A stretch of DNA of 32,000 bases from Kineococcus radiotolerans SRS30216 = ATCC BAA-149 (GCF_000017305.1 NC_009664.2:4470001-4502000); one strand, 5' to 3'; positions 2 to 18,504 are shown, counted from the stretch's first letter. Notes: generated from the letters alone by a model not told the origin. Translations and numbers: made by a program.

Positions 2-2074
2 AGTGACGCCACCTTCCGGGTCGGCACCGGGGGAGTGCGCGCCAACAGCATCTACGACGGCGAAACCTACGACGCGGGCCTGGAGCCCGAGGGGTGGTGC
101 GCTCCCGGCTTCGACGACTCGACGTGGCAGGCACCCACCCACCTGGACTGGCCCTCGCACACCCTGCAGGTGGCCATCACCCCACCCATCCGACGCGTCG
201 AGGAGCTCGCTGCGCTGACGGTGCTGAGCACCCCGAGTGGACGCACCGTCGTAGACTTCGGCCAGGTCTTGACCGGCTGGGTGCGCCTGCAGGTGCAGGG
301 AGACGCCGGGCGCACGATCACCCTGCGCCACGCCGAGGTGCTGACCTCCCAGGGTGAGCCGGAGTACGAGACGCTGCGCACCGCGCAGGCCACCGACCGC
401 TTCGTCCTGCGCGGCGCTGGCGTGGAGCACTTCGAGCCCCGCTTCACCTTCCACGGGTTCCGCTACGTCGAGGTGGAGGGCTGGCCCGGTGAGCTGAACC
501 CCGACGCGATGCGTGCTGTCGTCGTGCACAGCGACATGACCCGCACCGGCTGGTTCGAAAGCTCCCACGCCCTGCTGAACCGGTTGCACGAGAACGTGGT
601 GTGGTCCATGCGCGGCAACTTCGTCGGGGTACCCACCGACTGCCCTCAACGCGATGAGCGACTGGGCTGGACCGGAGACCTCAACGCCTTCGCCCCCACC
701 GCTGCCTTCCTCTACGACGTCCGCGGCGTCCTGGGCTCCTGGCTGGCCGACCTGGCCGCGGAGCAGGCGGACAAGGGGGTCGTGCCCTGGGTGGTCCCCG
801 ATGTCCTCAGCACCCCCTCCGCCCCCACAGCCCTGTGGAGCGACGTCGCCGTGAGCCTGCCGTGGACCCTGTACTGGGAACACGGCGACCTGGAGATCCT
901 GCGCCGCAGCTACCTGTCCATGTCCGCCTTCGTCCACCAGGTCGAGGCGCTGCTCGACGAGCGGGGCCTGTGGAACACCGGCTACCAGTTCGGTGACTGG
1001 CTGGACCCCGACGCCCCGCCCGAGGACGCAGCCGGCGGTAAGACGGATCGGTACCTGGTGGCCTCGGCCTACTTCTGCCGCACCACGCAGATCATGGCCC
1101 AGACCGCGGCCCTGCTGGAGCAGACCGCGGACGCCGAGCACTTCGCGGATCTGGCGCGACGCGTGCGCAGCGCCTTCCGCCACGAGTTCGTCAGCGCCTC
1201 CGGACGCCTGGTCAGCGAATCGGCCACCGCCTACTCCCTTGCCCTGTGTTTCGACCTGCTCGAGGAGGACCAGCGGCGGACCGCCGGCGACCGGCTGGCC
1301 GAGCTGGTGCGCAAGGCCGGCTACACCGTCTCCACCGGCTTCGCCGGTACCCCCCTGGTGGCCCACGCCCTCTCTGAGACCGGGCACCTGGACGCGGCCT
1401 ACTTCCTACTCACCGAGACCGACCGGCCGTCGTTCCTCTACCCCGTCACGATGGGTGCTACGACGATCTGGGAGCGGTGGGATGCGGTCCTGCCCGACGG
1501 AACGCTCAACTCCACTGGCATGACCTCGCTGAACCACTACGCGCTGGGGGCGGTCGCCAGTTGGCTGCACCGCGTCGTCGGTGGCCTGCAAGCCGAGGAA
1601 GCTGGCTACCGACGGATGCGCATCGCCCCGCAGCCCGGCCCGGGGGTCACCTCAGCCCACGTGAGCCACCAGACCGGGTACGGCACCGTAGACGTCGCAT
1701 GGGTGGTGCAGGCCGGCACGGTTTCCCTGGACGTGACCATCCCCGAGGGCACCAGAGCTCGCGTCGTCCTTCCCCTGCACCCGGACCTGACCGAGACCGA
1801 GGTGGGTGGCGGCACCCATCACTGGTCCTACCCGGCGCCGGCGGGATGGGGCGAGCGCACGATGTTCACGCTGGACACGCCGCTGAAGACCATCGCTGAC
1901 GACCCGCTCACCTGGAAGGCGGTCAGCCGGGTCTTCAAGAAGCACCTGCCCTTTCCCGTCGACGGCTCGGCGCCGGAAGCGGCAGCCATGCCGCTGCGGA
2001 CGTTGCTGGGCCTCATTCCCCACGCCTCCGCGCAGCTGCGGGACGACCTCGAGGCGGCGTTGCAGACCGTGTGA
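2..2074 (+). CDS. alpha-L-rhamnosidase (GH78), 5'-partial at window edge
   Basis: The frame is open from nt 2 (SDATFRVGTGG precedes the listed GTG at 35), so the gene starts upstream of the window. GH78 hallmarks are present: DCPQRDERLGWTGD, FHGFRYVEV, GATTIWERW. Stop TGA at 2072-2074. Confidence 0.9.
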   Translation, partial: SDATFRVGTGGVRANSIYDGETYDAGLEPEGWCAPGFDDSTWQAPTHLDWPSHTLQVAITPPIRRVEELAALTVLSTPSGRTVVDFGQVLTGWVRLQVQGDAGRTITLRHAEVLTSQGEPEYETLRTAQATDRFVLRGAGVEHFEPRFTFHGFRYVEVEGWPGELNPDAMRAVVVHSDMTRTGWFESSHALLNRLHENVVWSMRGNFVGVPTDCPQRDERLGWTGDLNAFAPTAAFLYDVRGVLGSWLADLAAEQADKGVVPWVVPDVLSTPSAPTALWSDVAVSLPWTLYWEHGDLEILRRSYLSMSAFVHQVEALLDERGLWNTGYQFGDWLDPDAPPEDAAGGKTDRYLVASAYFCRTTQIMAQTAALLEQTADAEHFADLARRVRSAFRHEFVSASGRLVSESATAYSLALCFDLLEEDQRRTAGDRLAELVRKAGYTVSTGFAGTPLVAHALSETGHLDAAYFLLTETDRPSFLYPVTMGATTIWERWDAVLPDGTLNSTGMTSLNHYALGAVASWLHRVVGGLQAEEAGYRRMRIAPQPGPGVTSAHVSHQTGYGTVDVAWVVQAGTVSLDVTIPEGTRARVVLPLHPDLTETEVGGGTHHWSYPAPAGWGERTMFTLDTPLKTIADDPLTWKAVSRVFKKHLPFPVDGSAPEAAAMPLRTLLGLIPHASAQLRDDLEAALQTV

Positions 2075-2100
2075 GGTCGCCACGCACGCCATCGAGGTCC

Positions 2101-2120
2101 GGCGCACCACGCGGTGCGCC
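2101..2120 (+). terminator. GC hairpin between the GH78 and GH43 genes (weak terminator or stabilising stem-loop)
   Basis: GGCGCACC-acgc-GGTGCGCC: perfect 8-bp stem, 4-nt loop, followed by TTCGTCG. It lies 27 nt after the GH78 stop. Confidence 0.3.
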
Positions 2121-2172
2121 TTCGTCGCCCTCCACCCGCGTCACGTCCCCCGACCCAGGAGCCGCCGACACC

Positions 2173-3933
2173 ATGCACACGCCGATCATCCCCGGGTTCT
2201 ACCCCGACCCCTCCATCTGCCGCGTCGGCCAGACCTATTACACGGCGCACTCCAGCTTCGAGTACGTCCCCGGGGTGCCCCTGTTCAGCAGCACCGACCT
2301 GGTGACCTGGACACAGGTCGGCAACGCCCTGGTCCGCTCCGCTCAGCTGACCCCCAGCGCAGGCAGCGCCAACAGCGGTGTCTACGCCCCCACGTTGCGC
2401 CACGGTCGGGGGAAGTTCTGGCTCGTCACCACTGACGTCGCGCAGATGACGCGTGGGCACTTCATCGTCTCCGCCCACGACCCGGCCGGTCCCTGGTCCG
2501 ACGCGGTCTTCGTCGAGGGGGCCTTGGGCGTCGACCCGGACCTGATGTGGGACGACGACGGCGTCTGCCACCTGACGTGGAAGTCTTTCGACGTACGCTG
2601 CCCGGGCATCGTCAGTGCCGTCGTCGACCCCGAGGCCGGGCGCCTGCTCACCGAGCCGATCCCGCTGTGGCAGGGACTCGGGTTGCAGGCCCCGGAGGGA
2701 CCGCACCTGTACCGCATCGACGGCTGGTGGTACCTGTTGCTGGCCGAAGGCGGCACCGAACGCGGTCACGCCGTCACCATGGCCCGCGCGCGCGACCTGC
2801 ACGGACCGTGGCAGGAGGCGCCGGTCAATCCGGTCCTGACCCACCGCAGCACTGAGCACCCGGTGCAGAACGTCGGCCACGCCGACCTGGTGCAACGCCC
2901 GGACGGGTCCTGGGCGATGGTGTTCCACGGCGTCCGTGCCCGTGGGCAGAGCCCGTTGTTTCACGTCAACGGACGCGAGACGTTCATTGCCGGCCTGGAG
3001 TGGGTCGACGGTTGGCCCCGCATCGACGAGGACGCCTTCACCGTCCCCGTCCGCGACCACTCCTTCACCGACCGCTTCGAGGCCGTCGAGCTGGACCGGC
3101 GTTGGGTCGCTCCCGGGGTGGCCCCCGCCACCTTCACCCGGAGCACCCCCAACGGGCTGCACATCGACAGCCAGGCCGCCCCCGCGGCGACGGCGTTGCT
3201 GGCGGTGCGCCCCCGTGACCCGGAATGGACCGTCCAGGTCCGCCTTCGCGTGCAGGGCAGCTGCCGCGTCCTGGTCCGCATGGACGCCGACCGCTGGTAC
3301 GGGCTGAGCATCGACGAGCGCGGCACGGAAGCGACCTTGGCCATCGGCCCCGCCGTCGCCACCGTCGGGCGCATCGACCACCCCGAGCCCCCCACGAGCT
3401 CGAACAGCACGACAGCAGCAGGCAGCGCAGTTCCTGGCCGCGGTGCCGAGGTCACCGTGCGCATCAGCGCCCGGGCTGCGGCAGGCGGTGGGTTCGGTGT
3501 CTCCGGAGAACCGGACCACCTCGAGCTGGCGGCGCTGGAACCCGACGGTGTCGAACGCGTCTTCGGCTCCTTCGAAGGCCGCTACCTCTCCACCGAGGTC
3601 GCCGGCGGCTTCACCGGACGCGTCGTGGGGGTCGAGGTCCTGCACGGCAGCGCGACGGTCCGCGAATTCACCTACCGCACCGACGACGCGGCGTCCGCCC
3701 CGGCATCTCCTGGGATGCGCTACAACCTCGCAGTGACCACGTTGCACACCCTCATGGACGACCCCGAAGCACACGCGATCCTCCAAGAGCTCATGCCCGA
3801 CTTGCTCGTGCACCCGTTGCTGCACCTCATCCGCGAGGTGCCCGCGCAAAGCCTCCTGCGGGGAGGGCAGGAAGTACCTGAGCAGCTCGCTGACGACGTA
3901 CTTCAGCGTCTGCAGGCTCTGCCCGCAGGATGA
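2173..3933 (+). CDS. GH43 beta-xylosidase / alpha-L-arabinofuranosidase-type hydrolase with C-terminal beta-sandwich domain
   Basis: ATG at 2173 is preceded by AGGAG (2157-2161). The N-terminus MHTPIIPGFYPDPSICRVGQTYYTAHSSFEYVPGVPLFSSTDLVTW is a typical GH43 propeller start, and EGPHLYRIDGWWYLLLAEGGTE is also typical. The 34 codons upstream in the track ORF (from 2071) look like a non-coding extension. No signal peptide. Confidence 0.9.
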   Translation: MHTPIIPGFYPDPSICRVGQTYYTAHSSFEYVPGVPLFSSTDLVTWTQVGNALVRSAQLTPSAGSANSGVYAPTLRHGRGKFWLVTTDVAQMTRGHFIVSAHDPAGPWSDAVFVEGALGVDPDLMWDDDGVCHLTWKSFDVRCPGIVSAVVDPEAGRLLTEPIPLWQGLGLQAPEGPHLYRIDGWWYLLLAEGGTERGHAVTMARARDLHGPWQEAPVNPVLTHRSTEHPVQNVGHADLVQRPDGSWAMVFHGVRARGQSPLFHVNGRETFIAGLEWVDGWPRIDEDAFTVPVRDHSFTDRFEAVELDRRWVAPGVAPATFTRSTPNGLHIDSQAAPAATALLAVRPRDPEWTVQVRLRVQGSCRVLVRMDADRWYGLSIDERGTEATLAIGPAVATVGRIDHPEPPTSSNSTTAAGSAVPGRGAEVTVRISARAAAGGGFGVSGEPDHLELAALEPDGVERVFGSFEGRYLSTEVAGGFTGRVVGVEVLHGSATVREFTYRTDDAASAPASPGMRYNLAVTTLHTLMDDPEAHAILQELMPDLLVHPLLHLIREVPAQSLLRGGQEVPEQLADDVLQRLQALPAG

Positions 3934-4104
3934 CCCCGATACCCCCCGGGCACTGACCGACGCTCTGGATCGCGCCCGGAGTCGGGCCAGGCACCGATGA
4001 CGTCCGGCCCGGATCCTCTGGCCTCTTCCGCCGCGCCGCCTCAAAAGAGCGGCCGGCGGCCGAACAAGGTGCGAGTGAGAGTCGACCTGGTCGGTGCTCC
4101 GCGA

Positions 4105-4153
4105 ACGTCAGCCCCTCGCCCGGCGGTGGACCCACCGGGCGAGGGGCTGACGT
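4105..4153. terminator. bidirectional intrinsic-terminator-like hairpin between convergent GH43 and GH3 genes
   Basis: ACGTCAGCCCCTCGCCCGG (4105-4123) and CCGGGCGAGGGGCTGACGT (4135-4153) form a perfect 19-bp stem with an 11-nt loop. It sits 21 nt beyond the GH3 stop (4174) and 172 nt beyond the GH43 stop. There is no U-tract, which is common in high-GC actinobacteria. Confidence 0.55.
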
Positions 4154-4173
4154 GCCCGGTCAGGACGAGGCGG

Positions 4174-6981
4174 TCAAGCGCGGGCAGTGCCTCCTGCGCG
4201 CGTGCGCTCGACGAGGTCAGCGACCATGGCCTCGGTGAAGCGTCCGCCGCTGTAGCCGGCCATCTGCGCCAGCGTCAGGCCGTACGCGTCGGTCAAGACG
4301 CCGTCGCTGTCCTCGCCCTCCTCGCCGAGGCCGAGCAGGGCGCGTAGGAGGCCTCCGCCGACGGGGTGCTCCAGCCACTCCAGCACCGTGTCCTCGGCGG
4401 TGATGACCGGCACCGGCCTACGCAAGGCGCCGCCTCCCCCGGCCCGCGCGGCGCGTGCCGCGACGTCCGAGTCGATGTCCGGGTCGATGTCGGCGACGCT
4501 GACGGTGCAGCTGAGTGCTCGATCCGGACCCGGCCGGTCCACGGGGCCGGTGAGCAGAGCTGAAGCACGCAGAGGGGTCTTCACCGACGACCCGCCGACG
4601 AAGAACTTCACGGTGCCCGGCTCCACGACCCACCCCTCCTGCAGGTCCCACAGGGCGAACAGGCTCGCCGGGACCTGCACCGAGACCCGTGTCGCGGCTC
4701 CGGCCTCCAGGTGCAGGCGCTGGAAAGCCAGGAGCTTGCGCGCTGGTCGTGCGGTGCGGGCCACCACGTCCTGCCCGTAGACCTGCACCACCTCCTCTCC
4801 GGCGCGCTGCCCGACGTTGGCGACGGTGAACGACAGGTTGAGCGTCGCGCCGGTGGTGGCCTCCTGGTCCACCTCCAGGTCGCGGTACTCGAAGCTGGTG
4901 TAGCTCAGCCCATGGCCGAAGCCGAAGACCGCCCTGGCCGGACCCTCCACGTAGGAGGGAGGTGCCTGCAAGGTGCGCCAGTAGGGCAGGGGCGCTGACC
5001 CCACGGACTCCAGGAACGCAATCGGCAGGCGCCCGGCGGGGTTGACGTCGCCGAAGAGGACCGAGGCCAGGGCGTTGCCGGCTTCCTCCCCGCCGAAGAA
5101 GCACGTCACGACGGCCGGCACCGACTGCGCCAGCCACTTCAAGGTGTAGGGGCGGCCGTGGCTGAGGACGACGGCGGTCGGGGTGCCGGTGGCGACCACG
5201 GCTTCCACCAGGGCCTGCTGCACCGGCGGTAGCTCGCAGGTGGAGCTGTCCAGCCCCTCCCCGACGTTGCCGAAGCCGTTGATACCGGCCTGGTCGCCGA
5301 CGACGAGAACCGCCACGTCGGCGCGGGTGGCCGCCGCCACGGCCGCAGCGAATCCTGAGCGGTCATCACGCACCACCGGGCACCCGGCCTCGTACAGGAC
5401 CTCACCTTCAGCGCGGGCGCGGATGCCTTCCAGGAACGTCACCACCGGCACCGACTCCACCAGCAGACGCGCATCGTCGGCCCCGGTTCGCCCGGCCAGC
5501 CCTTCGACGTCCTCGGCTCGGGCGGTGGGGTCTGCGGCCAGGGCGAAGCGGCGGGTGATGCTGTCCAGCACGTGGTAGCTGTAGTGGCCCAGCTGTCCCA
5601 GGGGGCGGTCGGCGTTGGGGCCGATGACCGCGATGGTTCCCACACCGGGGTCCAGGGGCAGCAGGGGAGCGCCGTTCGCCAGTCCAGCAGCGGGTCCAGC
5701 AGCGGGTCCAGCAGCGGGTCCAGCGCGGAACCTGTCGACCGGATCGTTCTGCAGCAGAACCACCGACTTTTCCGCCACGGTGCGCGCTAGCGCCCGCTCG
5801 GGAGCGGTGTCCAGGCTCTCCGGCACGGCGTCGAGGTCGACGTAGGGCCGTTCGAACAAGCCCAGCTCGACCTTGGCCCGCAGGATCGTGCTCACCGCCC
5901 GGTCCAGGTCGGCGCTGGGCAGCAGTCCGGAGCGGACTGCCTCCTGCAGGGCCTGGGAGGAGACCCGGTTGTCGAGGTCGAGGTCAACTCCGGCCGAGAC
6001 CGCCCGGGCCAGGGCCTCGGGCGCGGTGGCGGCGACGTGGTGCTTGGAGTGCAGTTGCCCCACCGCCGCGAGGTCCGAGATCACCAGGCCGTCGAAGCCG
6101 AGCTCCCCGCGCAGCAGGTCATTGAGGTAGGCCCGCGAGCCGGTCACTGGTTCACCGTCGATGTCGTTGTAGGAGGGCATCACCCCCTTGGCCCCGCCCT
6201 CGCGGATCGCCATCTCGAAGGGCAGCGCGTGCACCTCGCGCACCTCCCGCGGTCCCAGCGGGGCGGGCTCGGTATTGCGTCCTCCTGCGCTGGCGCTGTA
6301 GCCGAGGAAGTGCTTCAAGGTCGCGATCAGCGGGGTGGTCTCGTCCGCGCCCTGCAGGCCACGGACAAAGGCGGCGGCCATCGAGCCCACCAGCTGCGGC
6401 TCCTCGCCGTAGGTCTCTTCCACCCGGCCCCAGCGCGGGTCGCGCGCGACGTCAGCCAGGGGGGACAGGGCCTGCCGCACACCGAGACGGGTCATCTGCA
6501 CACCGATGGTGCGCCCGACCTGCTCGATCAGCTGCGGGTCCCAGGTGGCGGCCTGGGCGATGGCGTCGGGGAAGGTCGTGGCGTCACGGACCTTCAGGCC
6601 GAGCAGGGCCTCCTCGGCCAGCAGCACCGGGATGCCGAGACGTGTCTGCTCGACGTGTTTGCGCTGCAACTCATTAGCTCGTTCCGCGGTCTCACGCGGG
6701 GGCAGACCGAGGGTGCACAGCCCAGCCACCACGCACCCCCAGCCGGTAGCGGGCGGAGTGTGGACGTCGACGGCTGAGCCGAACGGTGCGGCGAGCTGCG
6801 CGACCTTCTCCTCCAGCGTCATGCGACTCAACAAGTCAGCCACGCGCTCGCCGGCCGGCAGGGAAGGATCACGGTAGGGCATCGCGGTGGTGGCAGCGGA
6901 GGTCGTCAAGGGTGCCGTCACTGAAGTGGGCACAGCGGGCGGGGCGGTAGAGACAGCGCCGGAGGCTGCGGGGTCGCTCAC
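4174..6981 (-). CDS. GH3 beta-glucosidase-type hydrolase (BglX-like, with Fn3-like domain and C-terminal tail)
   Basis: GH3 motifs: RMTLEEKVAQL, GRNTEP, PSYNDIDGEP, GLVISDLAAV (nucleophile Asp region), IAVIGPNADRP, LSYTSFEY. The start is uncertain. GTG at 6981 has the best RBS (GAAAGGA, 5-nt spacer). ATG at 6882 (MPYRDPSL...) and the track GTG at 7014 are alternatives. No signal peptide. Confidence 0.88.
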   Translation of the reverse strand: MSDPAASGAVSTAPPAVPTSVTAPLTTSAATTAMPYRDPSLPAGERVADLLSRMTLEEKVAQLAAPFGSAVDVHTPPATGWGCVVAGLCTLGLPPRETAERANELQRKHVEQTRLGIPVLLAEEALLGLKVRDATTFPDAIAQAATWDPQLIEQVGRTIGVQMTRLGVRQALSPLADVARDPRWGRVEETYGEEPQLVGSMAAAFVRGLQGADETTPLIATLKHFLGYSASAGGRNTEPAPLGPREVREVHALPFEMAIREGGAKGVMPSYNDIDGEPVTGSRAYLNDLLRGELGFDGLVISDLAAVGQLHSKHHVAATAPEALARAVSAGVDLDLDNRVSSQALQEAVRSGLLPSADLDRAVSTILRAKVELGLFERPYVDLDAVPESLDTAPERALARTVAEKSVVLLQNDPVDRFRAGPAAGPAAGPAAGLANGAPLLPLDPGVGTIAVIGPNADRPLGQLGHYSYHVLDSITRRFALAADPTARAEDVEGLAGRTGADDARLLVESVPVVTFLEGIRARAEGEVLYEAGCPVVRDDRSGFAAAVAAATRADVAVLVVGDQAGINGFGNVGEGLDSSTCELPPVQQALVEAVVATGTPTAVVLSHGRPYTLKWLAQSVPAVVTCFFGGEEAGNALASVLFGDVNPAGRLPIAFLESVGSAPLPYWRTLQAPPSYVEGPARAVFGFGHGLSYTSFEYRDLEVDQEATTGATLNLSFTVANVGQRAGEEVVQVYGQDVVARTARPARKLLAFQRLHLEAGAATRVSVQVPASLFALWDLQEGWVVEPGTVKFFVGGSSVKTPLRASALLTGPVDRPGPDRALSCTVSVADIDPDIDSDVAARAARAGGGGALRRPVPVITAEDTVLEWLEHPVGGGLLRALLGLGEEGEDSDGVLTDAYGLTLAQMAGYSGGRFTEAMVADLVERTRAGGTARA
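5682..5724. repeat. 12-bp tandem repeat (GTCCAGCAGCGG x3 plus a partial copy) inside the GH3 CDS
   Basis: Three perfect 12-bp units at 5682-5717 and a 7-nt partial copy. In frame on the minus strand they encode AGPAAGPAAGPAAG, inserted in the loop before the conserved LPL motif. Confidence 0.9.
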
Positions 6982-7145
6982 AAAAGTCCTTTCATCGGCC
7001 GAGGCACTCAGCACGTGGTGATTCAGGGGCGGGTGGGCGTGACGGGTGGGAGTGACGGCTGGGTGGGGTAGGAGAGGACGGCAAGGGGGGACGCGTCGTG
7101 CATGGGTTCTTGGCGCGAGTGACCCTGTCGCGAGAGCTTCCGTGC

Positions 7146-9395
7146 TCAGCGGGTGGTGTCGCTCAGTGCTGCAAGGCGCTCAGCTGGCACGTCGAGCCCG
7201 GAGATGGTGACGAACTGGCGCATCGTCATGGATCGAACCATCAGCAGGTGCTCCGCGGAGATCACCGCCTGGCCGAATCCCAGCAGGCTCAGGGTCCGCT
7301 CACCGATGTGCGGGTGGTCCAGCCAGTCACCGACGGTGGAGTCCAGACCCACCTCGCGGGCCACGACGTCGCCGCTCAGCTCGATCACGGACTCGGTAAG
7401 GACGGTAGCGGCGTCAGCGCACACCTGCACCGCGTAGGTGCCGGGTGCCACGACCCAGGCGTCGACGTCGACGTCCCAGTAGGCGAACGCCCGGCGCGGT
7501 AGCTCCAGGCGCACCGTGCGGGTCTCTCCGGCCTGCAGCGCGATCTTGGTGAAAGCTCGCAGCTCACGGACTGGCCGGCGTACCGGCCCAGCTACGGTGG
7601 ACACATAGACCTGGACCACGTGCTGACCGGCCACGTCGCCGCTGTTGCGCACCTGCACGCTGAGCGCGGCGGTATCAGGACCGGTGACCTGCACGTCCAG
7701 GGCCGTCGTGTCGAAAGTGGTGTAGGACAGGCCGTACCCGAAGGGGTAGCGGAGGGGGGTGTCGAAGGTAGTGAACTGCCGGTAGCCGACGAACACGCCC
7801 TCGCCGTAGCGCACGTGCCCCTGCTCGCCGGGGAAGTTCAAGACACTGGCGTGGTCGGCCAGGCGCAGCGGGATGCTTTCGGCCAGGTGACCCGAGGGGT
7901 TGCGCAGCCCGAACAGCAGTTCGGCGACCGCCCGGCCCCCGCCTTGACCCAGCACGAAGGTCTCCAACACCGCCTGCACCTCATCGTGCCAGCCCTCCAA
8001 GGACACGATACCCCCGTTGGAGAGCACCACCACGGTACGTGGCGCCACCTGAGCGACTGCCCGGATCACCTCGACCTGGTCTCGGGGAAGGTCAAGGTCG
8101 ACCCGGTCCACTCCCTCGGACTCTCGGCGCTCGCTGAGCCCGGCGAAGACCACTGCGACATCGGCGGCGGCCGCGGCCTCGATGGCCTCGGCGAGCAGGT
8201 GCTCGGGGCTGGGCTGGTCCAGCAGGTACCCGCTGGCGTAGGTGACGTCGCTGCCGCGCTGCTGGGCGAGCAGTCGGATTTCCTCCAGAGGGACGTCGAT
8301 GCGGTAGGGGTTGACGTGGGCGCTGCCCCCGCCCTGCAACCGCGGCTCGCCCGCCAGGTGACCGATGACCGCGATGCGTCCCCCCGGCGACAACGGCAAG
8401 GTGGCGTCCTCGTTGCGCAGCAACACTGCGCACTGAGCGGCCAGGTCGCGGGCCAAGTCGTGGTGGGCTTCCACGTCGACGTACCCCGGCCGGTCCAGGT
8501 CATCGGCGCGCCAGCGGTCCAAACCCGCCACTCGGGCAGCGCTGCGGTCCACCACGGCTTCGTCCAGGGCCCCGGACCGTACGGCCTGCAAGACCTCCTC
8601 GTCGCGACCCGCGCTGCCCCCGGGCATCTCCAGGTCCAAGCCGGCGCGCAGAGCAGCGACACGATCGACGATGCCGTTCCAGTCGGAGAGGACGACACCA
8701 TCGAAGCCCCACTCCTGGCGCAGCACCTGAGTCAGCAGCCAGTGGTTCTGGGAGGCGAAGACACCGTTGATCTTGTTGTAAGCGGCCATCACCGTCGCCG
8801 GCTGCGCCTCACGCACGACGCGCTCGAAGGCCGGCAGGTAGATCTCGCGCAAGGTCCGGTCATCCACTTCGGCGGAGATGGTCTGGCGGTTGGTCTCCTG
8901 GTTGTTCGCGGCGAAGTGCTTCACCGACACCCCCACTCCCTGGGCCTGGACGTGCTTCGCGAAGGCCGCACCCAACACCCCCGACAGCAGGGGATCCTCG
9001 GAGTAGTACTCGAAGTTGCGTCCACACAGAGGTGAGCGCTTGATGTTCACCCCCGGTCCCAGCACTACATCCACTCCCTGCACGGCGGCCTCCCACCCCA
9101 GGGCCGTACCCAGCCGGGAGGCGAGCTTCGGGTCCCAGCTGCTACCGACCGCGACCGCCGGCGGGAAGCAGGTGGCCGGATCGCTCTCGAACATCGCCAA
9201 GTGGTCGTGACGACCAGACTGGTGGCGCAACCCGTTGGGTCCATCCGCGGTCCGCACCCCCCGAACCCCGGCCTCCGGCAGGTCCTCGGTAGCCCAGAAA
9301 TCACGACCAGACAGCAGACGCACCTTGCGGGCGAGGTCCACCTGCGCGATTCGATCGACGGGACTCTGCAGGCTCTCAACCTCGATGTCCATCAC
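7146..9395 (-). CDS. GH3 beta-glucosidase (cytoplasmic type)
   Basis: ATG-ATG start at 9395/9392 is preceded by GGAAGGAG. Motifs: LLSGRDFWAT, ADGPNGLR, KHFAANNQE, MAAYNKINGV, GVVLSDW (nucleophile region), IAVIGHLA, GYGLSYTTF. No signal peptide. Confidence 0.92.
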   Translation of the reverse strand: MMDIEVESLQSPVDRIAQVDLARKVRLLSGRDFWATEDLPEAGVRGVRTADGPNGLRHQSGRHDHLAMFESDPATCFPPAVAVGSSWDPKLASRLGTALGWEAAVQGVDVVLGPGVNIKRSPLCGRNFEYYSEDPLLSGVLGAAFAKHVQAQGVGVSVKHFAANNQETNRQTISAEVDDRTLREIYLPAFERVVREAQPATVMAAYNKINGVFASQNHWLLTQVLRQEWGFDGVVLSDWNGIVDRVAALRAGLDLEMPGGSAGRDEEVLQAVRSGALDEAVVDRSAARVAGLDRWRADDLDRPGYVDVEAHHDLARDLAAQCAVLLRNEDATLPLSPGGRIAVIGHLAGEPRLQGGGSAHVNPYRIDVPLEEIRLLAQQRGSDVTYASGYLLDQPSPEHLLAEAIEAAAAADVAVVFAGLSERRESEGVDRVDLDLPRDQVEVIRAVAQVAPRTVVVLSNGGIVSLEGWHDEVQAVLETFVLGQGGGRAVAELLFGLRNPSGHLAESIPLRLADHASVLNFPGEQGHVRYGEGVFVGYRQFTTFDTPLRYPFGYGLSYTTFDTTALDVQVTGPDTAALSVQVRNSGDVAGQHVVQVYVSTVAGPVRRPVRELRAFTKIALQAGETRTVRLELPRRAFAYWDVDVDAWVVAPGTYAVQVCADAATVLTESVIELSGDVVAREVGLDSTVGDWLDHPHIGERTLSLLGFGQAVISAEHLLMVRSMTMRQFVTISGLDVPAERLAALSDTTR

Positions 9396-9652: not shown

Positions 9653-10627
9653 TCAAGACGTAGGGGCAGGAGTGGTGTCCCCGGCTACCACCCGCAGCCG
9701 GTCGGTCACCTGGTGGGCGGGGTCAGCCACATCCTGCACGTTGAGCCGCTGCAAGAGCAGCCCAGCGATGGCATGCCCACTGAAGGCGATGTCGTAGTCC
9801 ACGGTCGTGATCGAAGGAGTCGAAGCCCGCGCGATGGAAGAGTTGTCGACCCCGATCAGACCGAAATCCTCCGGGGTGCGCCGACCCTGGTGCAGAGCCG
9901 CCCCCAACACCGCCAGCGCGACCTCGTCGTTGTACGCCACCAGCCCGACCGGACGCGGCGGCAGCTTGGCCACCGCAGCCTGGGCCCCACCACGCTCCAA
10001 CGCCACCCGCAGAGTCGGCAGCACGCGTACACCCTGCTCGCTGCACCACGCCTTCGCCCCCCGCTCCCGCGGCAGGGCGAAGCCGCGCTCGCGGACGGCG
10101 ACGGGCACGACGACCGCCAGGGTGTCGTAGCCGGCATCAGTCAGGTAGCGCGCCTGCAGTCTCCCGATCTCCTCGTCGATGGCGACCTGCGCCTCGCGCG
10201 GCTGGGCGATGAGGTGGACGCCGTGCTCGCGGATGCGACGTTCCTGGGCGGGGGGCAGCGGAGCCAGACTCACCACCCCGAACGGCTTGAGTCCCAGAAG
10301 GGTGTCGTGCAGGGACTCTTCCGAGCCCACGAAGCGCAGCAGGTTCGTCAGTCCCGCGGCGGTGAGGTCGGCGGTGATGATGTCGACCAGCTCCCGCAGC
10401 CTCGGGTTGAAGGTGACGTCGGGGATGAGGGTGATGACGATGTCGCTGGTGCCCCGGGCCAGGGTCCGCCCCGCCAGTGAGGGGCGGTAGCCCAGGACGG
10501 CCGCCGAGGCCCGGACCCGCGCGATGGTCTCCTCGCTGAAGAGGTGCTCGCGGCCGTTCAGGATCTGGCTCACCGTGGAGCGGGACAGACCGGCGTGCTG
10601 CGCGACGTCAGCGCTAGTCGCCATCAC
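9653..10627 (-). CDS. LacI/GalR-family transcriptional regulator
   Basis: N-terminal HTH MATSADVAQHAGLSRSTVSQILNG followed by a periplasmic-binding-protein-like sugar-sensor fold. Strong RBS GGGAGAGGAGG upstream of the ATG. Confidence 0.9.
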   Translation of the reverse strand: MMATSADVAQHAGLSRSTVSQILNGREHLFSEETIARVRASAAVLGYRPSLAGRTLARGTSDIVITLIPDVTFNPRLRELVDIITADLTAAGLTNLLRFVGSEESLHDTLLGLKPFGVVSLAPLPPAQERRIREHGVHLIAQPREAQVAIDEEIGRLQARYLTDAGYDTLAVVVPVAVRERGFALPRERGAKAWCSEQGVRVLPTLRVALERGGAQAAVAKLPPRPVGLVAYNDEVALAVLGAALHQGRRTPEDFGLIGVDNSSIARASTPSITTVDYDIAFSGHAIAGLLLQRLNVQDVADPAHQVTDRLRVVAGDTTPAPTS

Positions 10628-10666
10628 TGCCTCCTCTCCCTGACCGCCGCATCGCGTCCACCACGA

Positions 10667-12022
10667 TCAACGGACGCTGCGGATGCGCGCGGTCGTGATC
10701 GCCGTACCGGCGGCGAGTATAGCCCCGCAGGTGAACAGGGCGGCGTAGTTGCCGCCCCCGCCGAGGCCGATGACCAGCGGAGCCACGATCGGGGCGATGA
10801 CGCCGGGGATGCCGGAGGACAGGTAGTAGATGCCCATGTACTTCCCCGCCTTGTCCGGCTCGGGAAGCAGGTCGGTGGCCATGGCCAGGTCCACCGAGGT
10901 GAAAGCACCGGTGCCGGCGCTCAGCAGCGTTCCTCCGAGGATGAACATCGTGATGCTGTCGGCCACCGCAACGGTGATCAGCCCCGTGGCGATGAGGGCG
11001 GCAGCGAGGTAGATGAAGGGCTTGCGCCGGCGCAGCCGGTCGGAAAGGAACCCGCCCAGCACGGCGAAGGACATCAAGGCCACCAGGCTGATGCCGCCGG
11101 CGGCGGCCAGTTTCCGCCCCGCCTCCTCGGGGGTGGAGCCCAGCCGGTCGAGCAGGAAGTACAGCTGATAGGTGCTGAAGAAGGTGAACCCGAACTGCAG
11201 TAGGAATTTACCGATGAAGACCAGTGCGAAGTCGGAGTGCTGACGCGGGTTGAACAAGAAGCTGCGGAAGACCTCCGCCAGGGAGGGGACCACGGTCCCC
11301 GCGGGTGCGGGTTCGTCCTTGAGAATGGGCAGGAAGATCAGCAATCCCAGGGCGAAGACCACGCAAGGGGTGAGAAAGAGCAGCAGCATGCTGCCGGTGA
11401 GGAAGCTGCCGAAGAGGCTGGCGCCTACACCGGCCAGTGCAGCCGAAACCCCGCCGAGGGCTCCGACCCGGCCCCGCTGAGCAGAGGGGACGCGCTCGGC
11501 CAGCACCGGGTTGAACCCGGCGCTGATCACCGCGACGGCCAGCTGGGAGATGGACCAGCCCACCACCATGAGCGCGATGCTGGAGACGAGGGCGATGATG
11601 AGTGCGCCGAGGGCGGCGAGCAGAAGGCCGGCAACCAACCAGGGGCGGCGCCGTCCCCAGCGCAGCCGGGTTCCGTCGGCGAGAACCCCGGCGACGGGTC
11701 CGGCGATCAGACCGAGGATGCTGCCCAGGCCGATGACCAGTCCCAGGCTGGTGTGCTTGCCGGTCGGGTCGATGACCTGGACCTTGTAGGCCAGGCTGAA
11801 CAGCGCCGGCATCAGCATGACCAGGTTCAGGCCGAAGTAGGTGAACATGTAGGCGCCGATGAAGCCGGCGCCCACGCGGGGCAGCGGCCGTACGGGATCA
11901 CCTCGCTGGGAGCTGGGTGGGCCCGGCTCGTTGCGATGGGCGACGTGCTCGGTCACCAAGCCGGCGGCGTCGCTTATCGCCTGGGCAGGGGTGATCTCCG
12001 GGGGCAGTGGGGTGTTGGACAC
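10667..12022 (-). CDS. MFS transporter, glycoside-pentoside-hexuronide (GPH/MelB-like) type
   Basis: About 12 hydrophobic segments. It has the GPH-like loop motif LADGTRLRWGRRRPW. GTG start is preceded by GGAG (5-nt spacer). It is the first gene of the minus-strand MFS-LacI-GH3-GH3 string. Confidence 0.85.
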   Translation of the reverse strand: MSNTPLPPEITPAQAISDAAGLVTEHVAHRNEPGPPSSQRGDPVRPLPRVGAGFIGAYMFTYFGLNLVMLMPALFSLAYKVQVIDPTGKHTSLGLVIGLGSILGLIAGPVAGVLADGTRLRWGRRRPWLVAGLLLAALGALIIALVSSIALMVVGWSISQLAVAVISAGFNPVLAERVPSAQRGRVGALGGVSAALAGVGASLFGSFLTGSMLLLFLTPCVVFALGLLIFLPILKDEPAPAGTVVPSLAEVFRSFLFNPRQHSDFALVFIGKFLLQFGFTFFSTYQLYFLLDRLGSTPEEAGRKLAAAGGISLVALMSFAVLGGFLSDRLRRRKPFIYLAAALIATGLITVAVADSITMFILGGTLLSAGTGAFTSVDLAMATDLLPEPDKAGKYMGIYYLSSGIPGVIAPIVAPLVIGLGGGGNYAALFTCGAILAAGTAITTARIRSVR

Positions 12023-12102
12023 GGTGGCTCCGTCGGCATCCGAGTACAGGGGCAGGTCTCATCCCGGCTCCGGAGCCGGCGCAAGAACGGTAACGCTATC
12101 CG

Positions 12103-12116
12103 TTGACGCGCGTCAA
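12103..12116. promoter_or_regulatory. perfect 14-bp palindrome TTGACGCGCGTCAA in the divergent promoter gap (candidate LacI-family operator)
   Basis: The sequence is exactly self-complementary with a central CG. It lies 81 nt upstream of the MFS GTG (12022) and 67 nt upstream of the GH2 ATG (12183). Each half-site reads as a -35-like TTGACG on its own strand. A flanking inverted repeat AACGG-N9-CCGTT sits at 12086-12104. Confidence 0.55.
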
Positions 12117-12182
12117 TGAGGTGTGTTTCGCTGTGCGGACTGCAGTGGACCCGCGAGCGATGACGCCACCGGAAGGACGACG

Positions 12183-14831
12183 ATGACCGTGGTAGCCCCT
12201 CCGACCCGGGTGCAAGAGCTCAAGGTCTGGAGGTTCGCCCCCGTCGACTCGGAGGCGTGGACTCCTGTCCGGTTGCCCCACGACGCGATGATCACCGAGC
12301 CGCGCACCCCCGATGCTCCCGGCGGCCCCGACGTGGCGTACTTCCCCGGTGGTCGCTACCGCTACCGCACCACCTGGTCCGCCCAGCAGGACCCCGCCGC
12401 CTTTACGGCCCTGCGCTTCGAAGGCGTCCAGGGTGAGGCCGACGTCTCGGTCAACGGGGCACACGTCGGTCGTATCCGCAGCGGCTACAGCGAGGTCGAG
12501 CTCGACATCAGCAACCACGTGTGCTGGGGCGCAGACAACGCGATCCACGTCGACGTCGACAACCTGGCGCAGCCGACCAGCCGCTGGTACCCCGGCTCAG
12601 GGCTCTACCGAACGGTCGCACTGGTCCTGCGACCCACCGTGCACTTCACCGCCGACGGACTGCGCCTTCGAACCCGTCACCTGCAGCGCGAGCGGGCCGT
12701 CGTCGACGTCGCCTACGAGCTGCGCACCGCGGTGGTGGGCCCGCTGCACGCCGAGGGGCATGCCGAGGGGCACGGTGAGGGGCACGGTGAGGGGCACGGT
12801 GAGGGGCACGGTGAGGAGCACCGCGAGGATCGTGTCGAGGAGCACCGCAATGATCGTGTCGAGGAGCAGCTCGAGGTGAGCATCGAACTGCTCGACGGCC
12901 AGGTCGTCGTGGCCCACGGCCTCGGGCGCGATGGAAGTGGGCAGGTGCGGTTGTCGGTCCCCGACCCTCGACCGTGGTCGGCGGAAACCCCCCACCTCTA
13001 CCGGCTGCGGGCCAGGGTGACACGCGGGGGGCGAGTACTGGACGAACGCGTCGAGCGCGTGGGGCTGCGCACCATCAGCATCGACCCCGTCCGCGGGCTG
13101 CAGGTCAACGGGCAGACGGTCCTGCTGCGCGGGGCGTGCGTGCACCACGACAACGGGGTGCTGGGAGCGGCCACCCACCGCGGCGCCGAGTATCGGCGGG
13201 TGCGGTTGCTGAAGGACGCCGGCTTCAACGCGATCCGCAGCGCCCACAACCCCGCCTCGCGGCACCTGCTGCAGGCCTGCGACGAGCTGGGCGTCTACGT
13301 CGTGGACGAGCTCGCCGACTACTGGGTGGTCTCCAAGACGGCCCACGACTTCGCGTGGCGCTTCGAGCAGACCTGGCGCGAGGACGCGGATGCGATGGTG
13401 CGCAAGGACCGCAACCACCCCGCCGTCATCATGTACGCCGCCGGCAACGAGATCCCCGAGACCGCCAAGGTTGAAGGTGTGGACCTGACCCGCCAGATCA
13501 CCGAGCACCTGCACCGCGCCGACCCCGACCGCCCGGTGACCGTGGCGATCAACCTCTTCCTCAACACCATGGTCGCGATGGCCAAGTCCCCCTACGGCGA
13601 CAGTCCCGCCACCTCTCCCGAACACCGCTCTGCGCAGGAGCAAGACCGCCCGTCAATGGCTGGTAGCACCGAGGCCAATGTCATGATCAACCAGATCGGG
13701 CGGATGATGGACGTCGTCTCCCGGCTGCCCCGCGCGGACAAGGCCTCCCGCGATGCCTTCGCCCAGGTCGACGTCGCCGGCTACAACTACGGACTGGGCC
13801 GCTACCAGCACGACGTCAAGGCCTACCCCGGGCGCGTGATCCTCGGGACTGAGACCCTGCCCGGTGACGTCGCCCGGGCCTGGCACCTGGTACAGCAACA
13901 CGATGCGGTCATCGGCGACTTCGTCTGGGCCGGGTGGGAGTACCTCGGCGAGGCGGGGGTCGCGGTCTGGGTCCCGGGTACGCGGGCGGGGCTGTCCAAG
14001 CCGTACCCGCACCTGATCGCCGGACCCGGCATGTTCGACCTGACCGGCCGCCCCGACATCACCTTGCGCCTGGCCCAGGCCGCCTGGGGACGACTGGAGG
14101 CCCCGGCCATCGGGGTGCGACCGCTGGATCGCGCCGGGGTCCCGATGGTCCGCTCCGCCTGGCGGGTCACCGACGCGGTGGAGAGCTGGTCCTGGCGCGG
14201 CTGCGAAGGCCGCACCGCCGAAGTCGAGGTCTACAGCGACGACGACCGCGTCGAACTGCTCCTGAACGGGGAGGTGGTCGGACGCGCCCGCACGGGGCGC
14301 AGGCGCGGGTACCGGGCCACCTTCACCCTCCCCTACGCACCCGGTGTCCTCACCGCTGTGGGCTACCGCGATGGCGTGGCGACCTCGAGCCGGTCCTTGA
14401 GCAGCGCCACCGGCCCGCTGCAGTTGCGTCTGCACAGCGAGGCCGCCGCAATCACCGCCGACGACGAGGAAGTGCTGTTCGTGCAGGTGTCGATCACCGA
14501 CGCCGACGGGGTGGTGGAGATGCTCGCCGACGAGCAGGTCCAGGTGGTCATCGACGGCCCCGGTGAGCTCATCGGGTTCGGCACCGCCGCCCCGGCCTCG
14601 GAGGAGGGTTTCACCGGCGACACCCGCACCACCTTCCGGGGGCGGGCCCTGCTGGTGGTGCGCAGCACCGGCGCCGAAGGAGCGATCACCGTGCGGGTGC
14701 AGGGGGCGACCACGGGGCGGGCCGAGGTGGTCGTCCCCGCTCTCAACCCGCCCGGCCGGACGGATGTCCGCGCCACCGATCTGGTCTCCATTCCCCGGGC
14801 CACCGGCGAGGCCGTCGTCGTCCTCGACTGA
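12183..14831 (+). CDS. GH2 family glycoside hydrolase (beta-galactosidase / beta-glucuronidase-like)
   Basis: ATG at 12183 is preceded by GGAAGGA (6-nt spacer). The track start at 12123 is less likely. Motifs: WRFAPVD..W..VRLPHD, PWSAETPHLY, NAIRSAHNPASRHLLQACDELGVYVVDE, NHPAVIMYAAGNE (acid/base Glu). C-terminal Ig-like domains follow. No signal peptide. Confidence 0.87.
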   Translation: MTVVAPPTRVQELKVWRFAPVDSEAWTPVRLPHDAMITEPRTPDAPGGPDVAYFPGGRYRYRTTWSAQQDPAAFTALRFEGVQGEADVSVNGAHVGRIRSGYSEVELDISNHVCWGADNAIHVDVDNLAQPTSRWYPGSGLYRTVALVLRPTVHFTADGLRLRTRHLQRERAVVDVAYELRTAVVGPLHAEGHAEGHGEGHGEGHGEGHGEEHREDRVEEHRNDRVEEQLEVSIELLDGQVVVAHGLGRDGSGQVRLSVPDPRPWSAETPHLYRLRARVTRGGRVLDERVERVGLRTISIDPVRGLQVNGQTVLLRGACVHHDNGVLGAATHRGAEYRRVRLLKDAGFNAIRSAHNPASRHLLQACDELGVYVVDELADYWVVSKTAHDFAWRFEQTWREDADAMVRKDRNHPAVIMYAAGNEIPETAKVEGVDLTRQITEHLHRADPDRPVTVAINLFLNTMVAMAKSPYGDSPATSPEHRSAQEQDRPSMAGSTEANVMINQIGRMMDVVSRLPRADKASRDAFAQVDVAGYNYGLGRYQHDVKAYPGRVILGTETLPGDVARAWHLVQQHDAVIGDFVWAGWEYLGEAGVAVWVPGTRAGLSKPYPHLIAGPGMFDLTGRPDITLRLAQAAWGRLEAPAIGVRPLDRAGVPMVRSAWRVTDAVESWSWRGCEGRTAEVEVYSDDDRVELLLNGEVVGRARTGRRRGYRATFTLPYAPGVLTAVGYRDGVATSSRSLSSATGPLQLRLHSEAAAITADDEEVLFVQVSITDADGVVEMLADEQVQVVIDGPGELIGFGTAAPASEEGFTGDTRTTFRGRALLVVRSTGAEGAITVRVQGATTGRAEVVVPALNPPGRTDVRATDLVSIPRATGEAVVVLD
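12747..12866. repeat. in-frame tandem repeats inside the GH2 CDS: 12-bp unit x6, then 24-bp unit x2
   Basis: 12747-12818 encodes HAEG-HAEG-HGEG-HGEG-HGEG-HGEE (GGGCACGGTGAG-type units). 12819-12866 encodes HREDRVEE-HRNDRVEE. Confidence 0.9.
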
Positions 14832-14869
14832 CTCCTCGAGTCCGACCATCAGCTGACCACCGAGAGGAC

Positions 14870-16042
14870 ATGCTCGTGCCGTACACCTTCCCCGTCGGCT
14901 TCTTGTGGGGGGCGGCGACAGCCGCTCATCAGGTCGAGGGCAACAACGTCAACAACGACTGGTGGAAGCTTGAGCACGACGCAGCCGGCTACATCGACTT
15001 CAGTGGGGATGCGCTCGACAGCTATCACCGCTACCCCGAGGACATGCGGTTGCTGGCAGAAGCGGGTTTGAACACCTACCGCTTCAGCATCGAATGGTCG
15101 CGCATCGAACCTAGTCCGGGAAAGTTCTCCGGAGCGTTGCTGGCCCACTACCGCCGCATGATCGACACCGCTCTCGCACTGGGACTGACTCCGATCGTCA
15201 CCCTGCATCACTTCACCCACCCGCTGTGGTTCGGCGAGCGCGGGGGATGGCTGGGGCCTGACGCCGTGGAGACGTTCACCCGCTACGTGCAGCGCGCTTG
15301 CACCATCCTCGAGGGGGTGCAGTGGGTGTGCACCATCAACGAACCCAACGTCGTGGCCATGAACCACGGCGCAGCACGCATCATGGCCGCCGGCCATCCC
15401 TATCCGTCGACGCCCTTCCCCGATCCTGTGATCGGGGAAGCGCTGATCACCGCCCACCTGGCCGCAGCGCCGCTGATCCGGCAGGCCACCGGCGCCCACG
15501 TGGGCTGGACGGTAGCCAACCAGGCCTTCGTCGCGGCCCCGGGGGCGGAGAGCAAGCACGCCGAGGTGAAGTACACCTGGGAGGACATGTACCTCGAGGC
15601 TGCGCGCGGTGACGACTACGTGGGCGTGCAGTCCTACACCAGCCAGGTCATCGACGCCGACGGCATCCGCGCCCATCCGGAAGACCCCGGGAACACCCTC
15701 ATGGGGTGGGCTTACCGACCCGACGCCCTGTCCATCGCTCTGCGTCACACCCGTGACATTGTCGGTGAGGTGCCGATCGTGGTCACCGAGAACGGCATCG
15801 CCACCGATGACGACGAACGGCGCATCGCCTACACCGGCGAGGCCCTGGCTGGACTAGCCCAGGCGATGCAGGACGGTATCGATGTGCGTGGCTACTGCCA
15901 TTGGAGTCTGCTGGACAACTTCGAGTGGGGCCGCTGGCACCCGACATTCGGGCTGATCGCGGTCGATCACGACACCTTCGCGCGTCATCCCAAGCCGAGC
16001 CTGGCGTGGCTGGGGTCCGTCGCTCAAGCCAACGCCATCTGA
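14870..16042 (+). CDS. GH1 beta-glucosidase
   Basis: Motifs: FPVGFLWGAATAAHQVEG, YRFSIEWSRIEP, TINEPNV (acid/base Glu), VVTENGIATDDD (nucleophile Glu), WSLLDNFEW. The RBS GAGAGGA ends 1 nt before the ATG, so GTG at 14876 (7-nt spacer) is an alternative start. Confidence 0.92.
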   Translation: MLVPYTFPVGFLWGAATAAHQVEGNNVNNDWWKLEHDAAGYIDFSGDALDSYHRYPEDMRLLAEAGLNTYRFSIEWSRIEPSPGKFSGALLAHYRRMIDTALALGLTPIVTLHHFTHPLWFGERGGWLGPDAVETFTRYVQRACTILEGVQWVCTINEPNVVAMNHGAARIMAAGHPYPSTPFPDPVIGEALITAHLAAAPLIRQATGAHVGWTVANQAFVAAPGAESKHAEVKYTWEDMYLEAARGDDYVGVQSYTSQVIDADGIRAHPEDPGNTLMGWAYRPDALSIALRHTRDIVGEVPIVVTENGIATDDDERRIAYTGEALAGLAQAMQDGIDVRGYCHWSLLDNFEWGRWHPTFGLIAVDHDTFARHPKPSLAWLGSVAQANAI

Positions 16043-16067
16043 GACCGCCCGTACGAGGAGACCGAGC

Positions 16068-16898: not shown

Positions 16899-17013
16899 CA
16901 ACTTCCACGGCGACCGCTGACGACCTCGCGAGCCGTGAGGCGGCGCGCCGCCCGCTCGACGGGCGAGCGCGACCTCACCGCCACGCCCGCACAAGCACCG
17001 AATCGAGGACTCG

Positions 17014-18231: not shown

Positions 18232-18431
18232 TGCGCGTCACCACCGAAACCGACCGGTGCGTGGCCGCCGGAGTGTGCGTCGTGGCCGCCCCCGCCGTTT
18301 TCGATCAGGACGACGAGGAAGGCCTCGTCGTCGTCCTGGATGCCGACCCGGGGGAGGAGCAGCGCCGGGCGGTGGAAGACGCCGCGGCGCGTTGCCCGGC
18401 CCGCGTCATCCACGTCAGCGGCGCCTCGTGA
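18231..18431 (+). CDS. small ferredoxin (3Fe-4S-type, P450-associated)
   Basis: 66 aa. It has DRCVAAGVCVVAAP ... ARCPARVI (CxxxxxC...CP pattern). Its ATG overlaps the P450 stop by 1 nt (TGATG), which suggests translational coupling. Confidence 0.8.
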   Translation: MRVTTETDRCVAAGVCVVAAPAVFDQDDEEGLVVVLDADPGEEQRRAVEDAAARCPARVIHVSGAS

Positions 18432-18504
18432 CGACTTATCAGATCAGTGACGCGAGGCGGTGCCCGACGGCGTTGACGGGCCCCATGACGCGGCAGGATG
18501 GGTT

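Follow-up and report, generated by a model that had tools for sequence, protein, structure and literature searches.

What role could the same short C-terminal tail play on glycosidases whose catalytic folds are unrelated? The question is raised by a 32,000-nucleotide stretch of the Kineococcus radiotolerans SRS30216 (= ATCC BAA-149) genome (NC_009664.2, nucleotides [nt] 4470001 to 4502000; here called the window), which encodes a GH78 alpha-L-rhamnosidase, a GH43 enzyme, and two GH3 enzymes (GH3a and GH3b). An earlier note made from the sequence alone had claimed that the last ~70 residues of these four enzymes are copies of one module, and our analysis bears this out. Profile-profile comparisons, sequence matches in the PDB, AlphaFold models, and fold matches show that the four tails are homologues and belong to a single superfamily of five-helix domains of ~70 residues. 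The same evidence shows that this domain is the one published as "domain 4" or the "C-terminal lid" of the GH3 beta-glucosidase PSTG1 (8J9F/9LQL) and of Clostridium thermocellum BglB (7MS2).

One domain at the C-termini of four glycosidases

In all four enzymes, the tail follows the last beta-sandwich domain, namely, Bac_rhamnosid_C in GH78, the GH43 beta-sandwich, and the Fn3-like domain in GH3a and GH3b (Table 1). Bac_rhamnosid_C ends at residue 603 of 690 and is separated from the GH78 tail by a linker of ~17 residues. The sole Pfam match of GH43, to its catalytic domain, extends no further than residue 316 of 620, and its homologues align to residue ~545; the tail itself is preceded by an Ala/Ser/Pro-rich linker (DDAASAPASPG). 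The Fn3-like domain ends at residue 810 of 946 in GH3a and at residue 660 of 749 in GH3b. No model in Pfam-A (2025 copy) or NCBIfam r20 matched any of the four tails, apart from spurious matches below threshold, and the stand-alone homologues described below and the tail segments of 7MS2 and 7KGZ were likewise unmatched in these copies.

When 15 representatives were merged into one alignment, it had the plan that had been described for the tails, i.e., a block A, a variable linker, a block B, and a terminal amphipathic helix. Block A reads h-x-h-D/N-S/T-x-L-x-x-L-h-x-D-P and is followed by the variable insert, and block B reads M/L-P/T-L/M-x-x-h-L and is followed by a Gly-containing turn and the final amphipathic helix. 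The GH2, GH1, and GH35-like proteins of the window had been said to lack the tail; indeed, none of them matched any of the three tail hidden Markov models (HMMs) that we built. Because of the L-D-S motif, we also considered an acyl-carrier-protein-like domain, which was rejected: there was no PP-binding match, and the D-S/T motif precedes helix 1 at the extreme N-terminus, with its Ser often replaced by Thr or absent.

Direct comparison of the four tails gave weak similarities. BLASTP aligned the GH78 and GH43 tails with 29% identity over 79 residues (E = 0.018) and the GH3a and GH3b tails with 30% identity over 66 residues (E = 5e-5), and the remaining cross-family pairs were not significant. 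Since the four sequences by themselves could therefore not establish a four-way alignment and outside sequences were needed, tail profiles were built with the window sequences excluded (GH78 type, n = 56; GH3 type, n = 103; GH43 type, n = 12). An HMM of the 56 nonwindow GH78 tails scored 84 bits on GH78 residues 622 to 689, and the GH43 tail of the window matched an HMM of its nonwindow stand-alone and fused relatives with 60 bits (E = 2.6e-18). When the GH3-tail HMM was run on the open reading frames (ORFs) of the window, it scored 96 bits on GH3b and 23 bits on GH3a (E = 1e-6). Across families, the GH3-tail HMM detected neither the GH78 nor the GH43 tail, and the GH78-tail HMM reached only an E value of 0.24 on GH43 and had no match in the PDB. 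The GH43-type HMM ranked the GH3b and GH3a tails second and third in the window, at the correct positions. A word-indexed search with the GH78 tail alone returned no match because the tails are too divergent for such an index. Given that single-family HMMs failed across families, profile-profile comparison was needed.

With HHalign, the GH78-type and GH3-type profiles aligned at 95.5% (P = 1.4e-8; score, 44.9), the GH43-type and GH78-type profiles at 96.4% (P = 1.4e-9), and the GH43-type and GH3-type profiles at 93.7% (P = 1.9e-7), with scores between tail types of 41 to 48. These values lie far above those of 120 column-shuffled controls for the GH78-type versus GH3-type comparison (mean, 9.5; standard deviation [SD], 2.0; maximum, 16.5) and of a reversed profile (12.5). 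The lone GH43 tail scored 26.2 against the GH78 profile, relative to 10.0 ± 2.0 (maximum, 15.5) for its shuffles, and the GH3a tail aligned to the GH3-type profile at 95.1% (P = 3.4e-8).

Sequence matches to solved structures lead to the same domain. The GH43-type profile had two significant targets among 177,635 PDB sequences, the GH3 enzyme BglB (7MS2, residues 676 to 752; E = 1.7e-4) and a GH2 beta-glucuronidase (7KGZ, residues 652 to 730; E = 1.3e-3), and both matches lie at the extreme C-terminus. The nearest solved relatives of GH3b are 5WAB, 8J9F, and 7MS2 (E = 1e-187 to 1e-191), and its block A aligned to 5WAB residues 675 to 699 and 8J9F residues 704 to 743. By phmmer, the GH3a segment ...GYSGGRFTEAMVADLVER aligned to 7MS2 residues 720 to 750 and 8J9F residues 728 to 776.

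The predicted folds agree with these assignments. AlphaFold2 models made from the GH78 and GH43 tail alignments had predicted local distance difference test scores of 92.6 and 89.6 and predicted template modeling (TM) scores of 0.78 and 0.74, respectively. The GH78 tail was modeled with five helices, and the DSSP strings of the two models show five to six short helices in identical order, with two single-residue beta-bridges, one just before helix 1 and one before the helix that follows block B. When the models were compared with 350,542 PDB chains using Foldseek, the top two matches of the GH78 model were 7MS2_A and 7MS2_B (TM score, 0.60 to 0.62), with 9LQL also among the best, and the top five of the GH43 model were 9LQL_D, 9LQL_A, 9LQL_B, 9LQL_C, and 7MS2_B (TM score, 0.48 to 0.54). 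Every GH3 entry in the two lists bears the tail, and the dozens of GH3 structures without it are absent. The Bifidobacterium adolescentis GH3 structure 5WAB carries block A by sequence (STFGEWADDP) yet, in contrast to 7MS2 and 9LQL, was never recovered by fold comparison; in the deposited model, the C-terminal domain may be missing or disordered.

Distribution across enzyme families and as stand-alone genes

In GH3b, the tail was present in 119 orthologues (58 to 73% identity), which contributed 103 distinct tail sequences with the signature LTLDSTvGeWfxHP...SMtMrQFvxISG...L. In GH78, it was present in 56 of the 120 best homologues, the remainder being truncated or ending earlier, and its signature reads TLDSpLxeLxDDPxaW...MtLrqlL...LxxdLeaAL. 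The GH78 tail is 50 to 60% identical to other GH78 tails, versus 29% to the adjoining GH43 tail. The GH78 and GH43 homologues of Nakamurella and Klenkia have no tail, so the tail is an add-on to these enzymes.

For GH43, scans of genomes and metagenomes with the whole protein returned only the homologues of Nakamurella and Klenkia, which have no tail, and a single truncated contig. Its last 118 residues were also searched against 1.84 billion representative proteins, and the top matches were listed. Among these matches, the GH43-tail fusion was rare, with a single GH43 cluster (P0241/P0313, a 569-residue orthologue), and the 39 matches that cover no more than the end of the beta-sandwich terminate within ~18 residues of that point. 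At the locus of the tail-bearing orthologue (L017), the upstream gene has no tail, so the gene order of the window is not conserved there. The closest relatives of the GH43-type tail among the matches listed were complete proteins of 72 to 75 residues that start with Met (35 to 42% identity). The GH43-type tail was also found on a carboxylesterase (PF00135; P0284), on a GH3 fragment, and twice in tandem in a 139-residue protein (P0265).

Each tail is closest to the tails of its own family in other genomes; the four are not duplicates of one another, so the module did not spread within the locus. Taken together, these comparisons show that each tail is an old, family-specific acquisition of the GH3 type, the GH78 type, or the GH43/stand-alone type and that none arose recently by copying at this locus. 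The claim that the module is portable and noncatalytic holds for the unrelated folds of GH3, GH78, and GH43 in the window and extends elsewhere to GH2, a carboxylesterase, and free-standing genes.

The stand-alone homologues include the RefSeq "hypothetical proteins" WP_055960544.1, WP_025159195.1, and WP_257517724.1 of Microbacterium and Leifsonia, and one cluster has 56 members. In Leifsonia aquatica (AYMR01000033.1; L009), the 72-residue WP_025159195.1 (nt 6001 to 6219) is encoded 140 bp downstream of a 741-residue GH3 enzyme (nt 3636 to 5861) in the order LacI-GH3-lid-MFS-GH43. This GH3 protein matched none of the tail HMMs and has no space for a tail, and the gene pair resembles the fused form split in two. 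In Microbacterium Root166 (L005:6001-6219), the stand-alone gene lies near genes for carboxylesterase, MFS transporter, and GH127 proteins, and in Microbacterium zg-Y818 (L011:6001-6219), it lies between P450/ferredoxin genes and genes for SnoaL-like and FAD-dependent oxidoreductase proteins. On two metagenomic contigs (L012 and L013:6001-6228), it overlaps the genes on both sides, which encode a SulP-STAS protein (upstream) and an MBL-fold hydrolase (downstream), and the gene for the tandem form (L014:6001-6420) adjoins a DsbA-like gene. The free proteins start with MPGKYDL, to which the start of the GH43 tail (...PG-MRYNL) can be aligned; we speculate from this alignment that the GH43 tail might have arisen by gene fusion with a free protein.

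Parts of this distribution have precedents. The GH3 tails are already known in kind, and the link between GH3 and GH2 has already been noticed in a June 2026 preprint on gut glucuronidases; the GH78, GH43, esterase, and stand-alone contexts are new. The similar tails that the earlier note mentioned on Firmicute enzymes are real for GH3 (7MS2 of C. thermocellum and 8J9F/9LQL of Paenibacillus). In the literature, we found no report that places the domain on GH78, GH43, or carboxylesterase proteins or describes it as stand-alone 72-residue genes, nothing relevant on a helical C-terminal extension of GH78, and no paper beyond Yanai et al. 2023 that describes the GH3 lid in detail.

Surrounding locus

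Beyond the four tailed enzymes, the locus encodes regulatory, transport, glycosidase, and oxidoreductase functions (Table 1). This gene content suggests that the locus imports a small plant or natural-product glycoside, deglycosylates it stepwise, and oxidizes the aglycone.

Table 1. Coordinates of the four C-terminal domains, the enzymes that carry them, and the neighboring genes in the window
Feature	Nucleotides	Strand	Remarks
GH78 C-terminal lid-like domain	1862-2071	+	70 residues (MFTLDTPL...ALQTV), residues ~621-690
GH43 C-terminal lid-like domain	3715-3930	+	72 residues (MRYNLAVTTL...ALPAG)
GH3a C-terminal lid domain, GH3 "domain 4" type	4186-4404	-	After long Ala/Gly/Asp-rich linker
GH3b C-terminal lid domain, GH3 "domain 4" type	7149-7352	-	VGLDSTVGDWLDHP...SDTTR
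GH78 alpha-L-rhamnosidase	2-2074	+	N-terminus cut by window edge
GH78 catalytic body	2-1861	+	Pfam Bac_rhamnosid_N, Bac_rhamnosid, Bac_rhamnosid6H, Bac_rhamnosid_C
GH43 ORF	2071-3933	+	Likely start ATG 2173
GH43 body, catalytic beta-propeller and beta-sandwich	2173-3714	+	Pfam Glyco_hydro_43, residues 37-316
GH3a	4174-7014	-	Start probably near nt 6882 (MPYRDPSL...)
GH3a body: TIM barrel, alpha/beta sandwich, Fn3-like	4405-7014	-	Pfam Glyco_hydro_3, Glyco_hydro_3_C, Fn3-like
GH3b	7146-9395	-	Follows GH3a in window
GH3b body: TIM barrel, alpha/beta sandwich, Fn3-like	7353-9395	-	Pfam
LacI-family regulator and MFS transporter	9653-12022	-	Pfam LacI/Peripla_BP_3, MFS_1
Rest of locus: LacI, MFS, GH2, GH1, SDR, P450, FAD-dependent ferredoxin-reductase-like, GH35/DUF5597	9653-21850		Pfam

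The longest ORFs exaggerate two N-termini (nt 2071 to 2173 of GH43 and 6882 to 7014 of GH3a). The GTG at nt 2071 overlaps the stop codon of GH78, and the ATG start given for GH43 is the most likely one because the resulting N-terminus agrees with that of the orthologue P0313. No signal peptide was evident at the N-termini of GH43, GH3a, and GH3b when these were judged by eye without a predictor. Low-complexity insertions lie in the alpha/beta sandwich of GH3a (GPAAGPAAGPAAG; nt ~5660 to 5720, minus strand) and in the beta-sandwich of GH43 (PEPPTSSNSTTAAGSAVPGRGAE; nt ~3390 to 3460, plus strand). A GH43_C2 Pfam match is present in the orthologue P0313 and lost in the beta-sandwich of the window protein.

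The GC content of the window is 69 to 74%; around 24 to 26 kb, it climbs to 0.73 to 0.74, and the AT skew drops to -0.285. The region from nt 22000 to 32000 encodes a histidine kinase paired with a LuxR-type response regulator, an Mrr-type restriction endonuclease (nt 25488 to 26201), and long ORFs with no Pfam match (nt 24035 to 25348, 28138 to 28968, 29052 to 30362, and 31053 to 31988).

Possible function and known counterparts

What is known of the domain elsewhere concerns mainly PSTG1 and its GH3 and GH2 relatives. In the 2023 work of Yanai and colleagues, domain 4 of PSTG1 is said to cover the active site of the other protomer in the homodimer and to form a hydrophobic cavity, and heptyl-thioglucoside reportedly acts as an inhibitor, consistent with the title of entry 9LQL. 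PSTG1 is a beta-glucosidase for sesaminol triglucoside from Paenibacillus sp. KB0549 (Yanai et al. 2023, J Biochem 174:335, cited in PMC13003327), and PMC13003327 gives its "C-terminal lid domain" a hypothesized role in aglycone recognition. The earlier note could not say whether a domain family or function had been defined; a lid function has been proposed for GH3, and the copies of Pfam and NCBIfam that we searched hold no family. Relatives of GH3b act on plant glycosides carrying bulky aglycones (PMC6327262). In GH2, the June 2026 preprint describes small helical C-terminal domains in 12 enzymes that resemble the 7MS2 C-terminal domain by Foldseek; it places the 7MS2-like domain near the active site, calling its function "not yet elucidated." In Roseburia hominis Rh3 GUS (7KGZ), triclosan glucuronide was processed less well once the C-terminal domain had been deleted, and such domains are disordered in crystals (PMC8748916).

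Based on these precedents, we consider it probable that the tails are tethered aglycone caps and that the four lidded enzymes act on the same kind of imported glycoside. Tethered by a flexible linker to the C-terminal end of a cytoplasmic exo-glycosidase, the tail would close an active site from its aglycone (+1) side; in GH3, this would be the active site of the partner protomer in the homodimer. The result would be a hydrophobic pocket for the nonsugar part of a small-molecule glycoside. The shared substrate kind would be an imported, aglycone-bearing glycoside, and the four enzymes may be clustered because all of them act on one class of such compounds. The SDR, P450, and reductase of the locus could process the aglycone, and the enzymes of the locus would not need to bind one another.

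Several observations weigh against the proposal of an aglycone cap. Lid function in GH3 itself is a structural proposal, it is for GH3 alone that lid action is known even as such, and that the tail reaches an active site in GH78 or GH43, whether in cis or in trans, is conjecture. The Rh3 GUS deletion removed ~150 residues, of which the tail module makes up only about half. The Foldseek E values (0.36 to 1.3) are not significant alone, so that their weight comes from rank and from agreement with the sequence profiles. Finally, some stand-alone homologues occur in nonglycosidase contexts (SulP/MBL-fold hydrolase and DsbA-like genes), which hint at a role broader than aglycone capping.

We tentatively entertain a wider version of the aglycone cap, as a possibility less likely than its opposite, in which the domain would define an unnamed, widespread ~70-residue "substrate-cap" family that serves many hydrophobic-conjugate enzymes either as a fused domain or as a separate subunit. 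The stand-alone proteins, such as the one encoded after the tail-less GH3 of L. aquatica, would in that case act in trans as lids that determine aglycone specificity, with partners among GH3, GH2, GH78, GH43, and carboxylesterase enzymes and possibly MBL-fold hydrolases and P450 systems. If true, the breakdown of glycosides and xenobiotics would involve accessory subunits of a new class, and the stand-alone genes make the cap hypothesis directly testable in trans. The aglycone specificity of cytoplasmic exo-glycosidases is poorly predicted by the catalytic domain, which concerns ginsenosides, flavonoid rutinosides, and drug glucuronides. A portable aglycone cap would provide a sequence marker that separates enzymes and loci for small-molecule glycosides from those for polysaccharides, and it would explain the C-terminal control of drug-glucuronide turnover in gut GH2 enzymes. 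It would also offer an engineering handle through lid swaps between scaffolds and justify a new Pfam entry or CAZy "X" module entry covering GH2, GH3, GH43, GH78, CE, and stand-alone proteins.

Of the other readings, the one that survives best holds that the domain is solely a homo-oligomerization clasp that packs on the neighboring protomer and takes no part in substrate binding. Its location at the end of a linker, as is often the case for swapped arms, is consistent with a clasp, as is the contact that the domain of PSTG1 reportedly makes with the other protomer. We nevertheless judge this reading unlikely, since a free-standing 72-residue version cannot clasp copies of an enzyme to which it is not fused, the preprint puts the domain beside the active site in GH2 models, and the Rh3 GUS deletion altered substrate processing.

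Slightly less likely still is that the domain is a general module for binding or handing over hydrophobic small molecules that serves many catabolic enzymes, also as a separate subunit, with a role like that of SCP2-like domains and with glycosidase capping as a special case. The fusion to a carboxylesterase, the tandem two-copy protein, and the stand-alone genes that adjoin P450/ferredoxin and carboxylesterase genes or are translationally coupled to an MBL-fold hydrolase gene would all fit such a module. However, ligand binding is conjecture, a helical domain of 70 residues offers little cavity by itself, the pocket in the one described case is formed only jointly with the catalytic domain, and the neighborhood evidence comes from a handful of loci.

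The earlier note had raised a docking or shared role as a possibility, with the tails assembling a cytoplasmic deglycosylation complex, tethering the enzymes to the MFS transporter, or mediating regulation. Four enzymes of one locus do carry the module, and dockerins are the classical precedent for a ~70-residue C-terminal tail shared by unrelated glycosidases. Nonetheless, we regard docking as very improbable: the tails match no dockerin or other assembly module in Pfam, the Pfam scan of ORFs of at least 200 residues found no scaffold-like protein (several of these ORFs had no match of any kind), across genomes the type of tail follows the catalytic family of its enzyme and not the locus, and in solved GH3 structures the domain reportedly packs on the dimer partner of the enzyme itself, not on a third protein. 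No positive evidence emerged for coassembly, MFS docking, or regulation.

Chance similarity between compositionally alike, helix-rich C-termini of a high-GC genome, to which the nonsignificant cross-family BLAST comparisons and the failure of single-family HMMs in other families might point, has almost no likelihood left, because the shuffle controls rule out a chance or low-complexity origin (profile-profile scores are ~17 SD above the shuffles and 8 SD above them for the lone GH43 tail against the GH78 profile), independent matches fall at the exact C-termini of PDB entries, and the predicted folds agree.

Among known systems, dockerins resemble the tails in being ~70-residue noncatalytic C-terminal modules common to unrelated glycosidase families. 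They differ from them in that the tails have no dockerin match in Pfam and no evident duplicated calcium-binding loop; a dockerin identity was rejected, given the lack of a Dockerin match at E ≤ 10 and of a signal peptide by eye on GH43, GH3a, and GH3b. No cohesin-like protein was found among the window ORFs with a Pfam match, and nothing indicates that the tails function as dockerins do. SCP2-like C-terminal domains of alkylsulfatases and other hydrolases have been proposed to hold the hydrophobic part of the substrate and are of interest as an analogy only, since their alpha/beta fold is unrelated and has no sequence or fold match to the tails. The "class 5" GH2 gut beta-glucuronidases, represented by Rh3 GUS, are closer, with the sequence match at residues 652 to 730 of 7KGZ. 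In Rh3 GUS, however, the catalytic family is GH2 and the domain follows DUF4982 within a disordered region of ~150 residues, whereas the GH2 enzyme of the window does not have the domain. The C-terminal domain of BglB from C. thermocellum (Acetivibrio thermocellus) is the best sequence and fold match of the non-GH3 tails. Domain 4 of PSTG1 shares with the tails its extreme C-terminal position after the last beta-sandwich, its size, its helical fold, and a homologous sequence, although in the window the same domain is also carried by GH78 and GH43, which have active sites and oligomer geometries of a kind unrelated to GH3.

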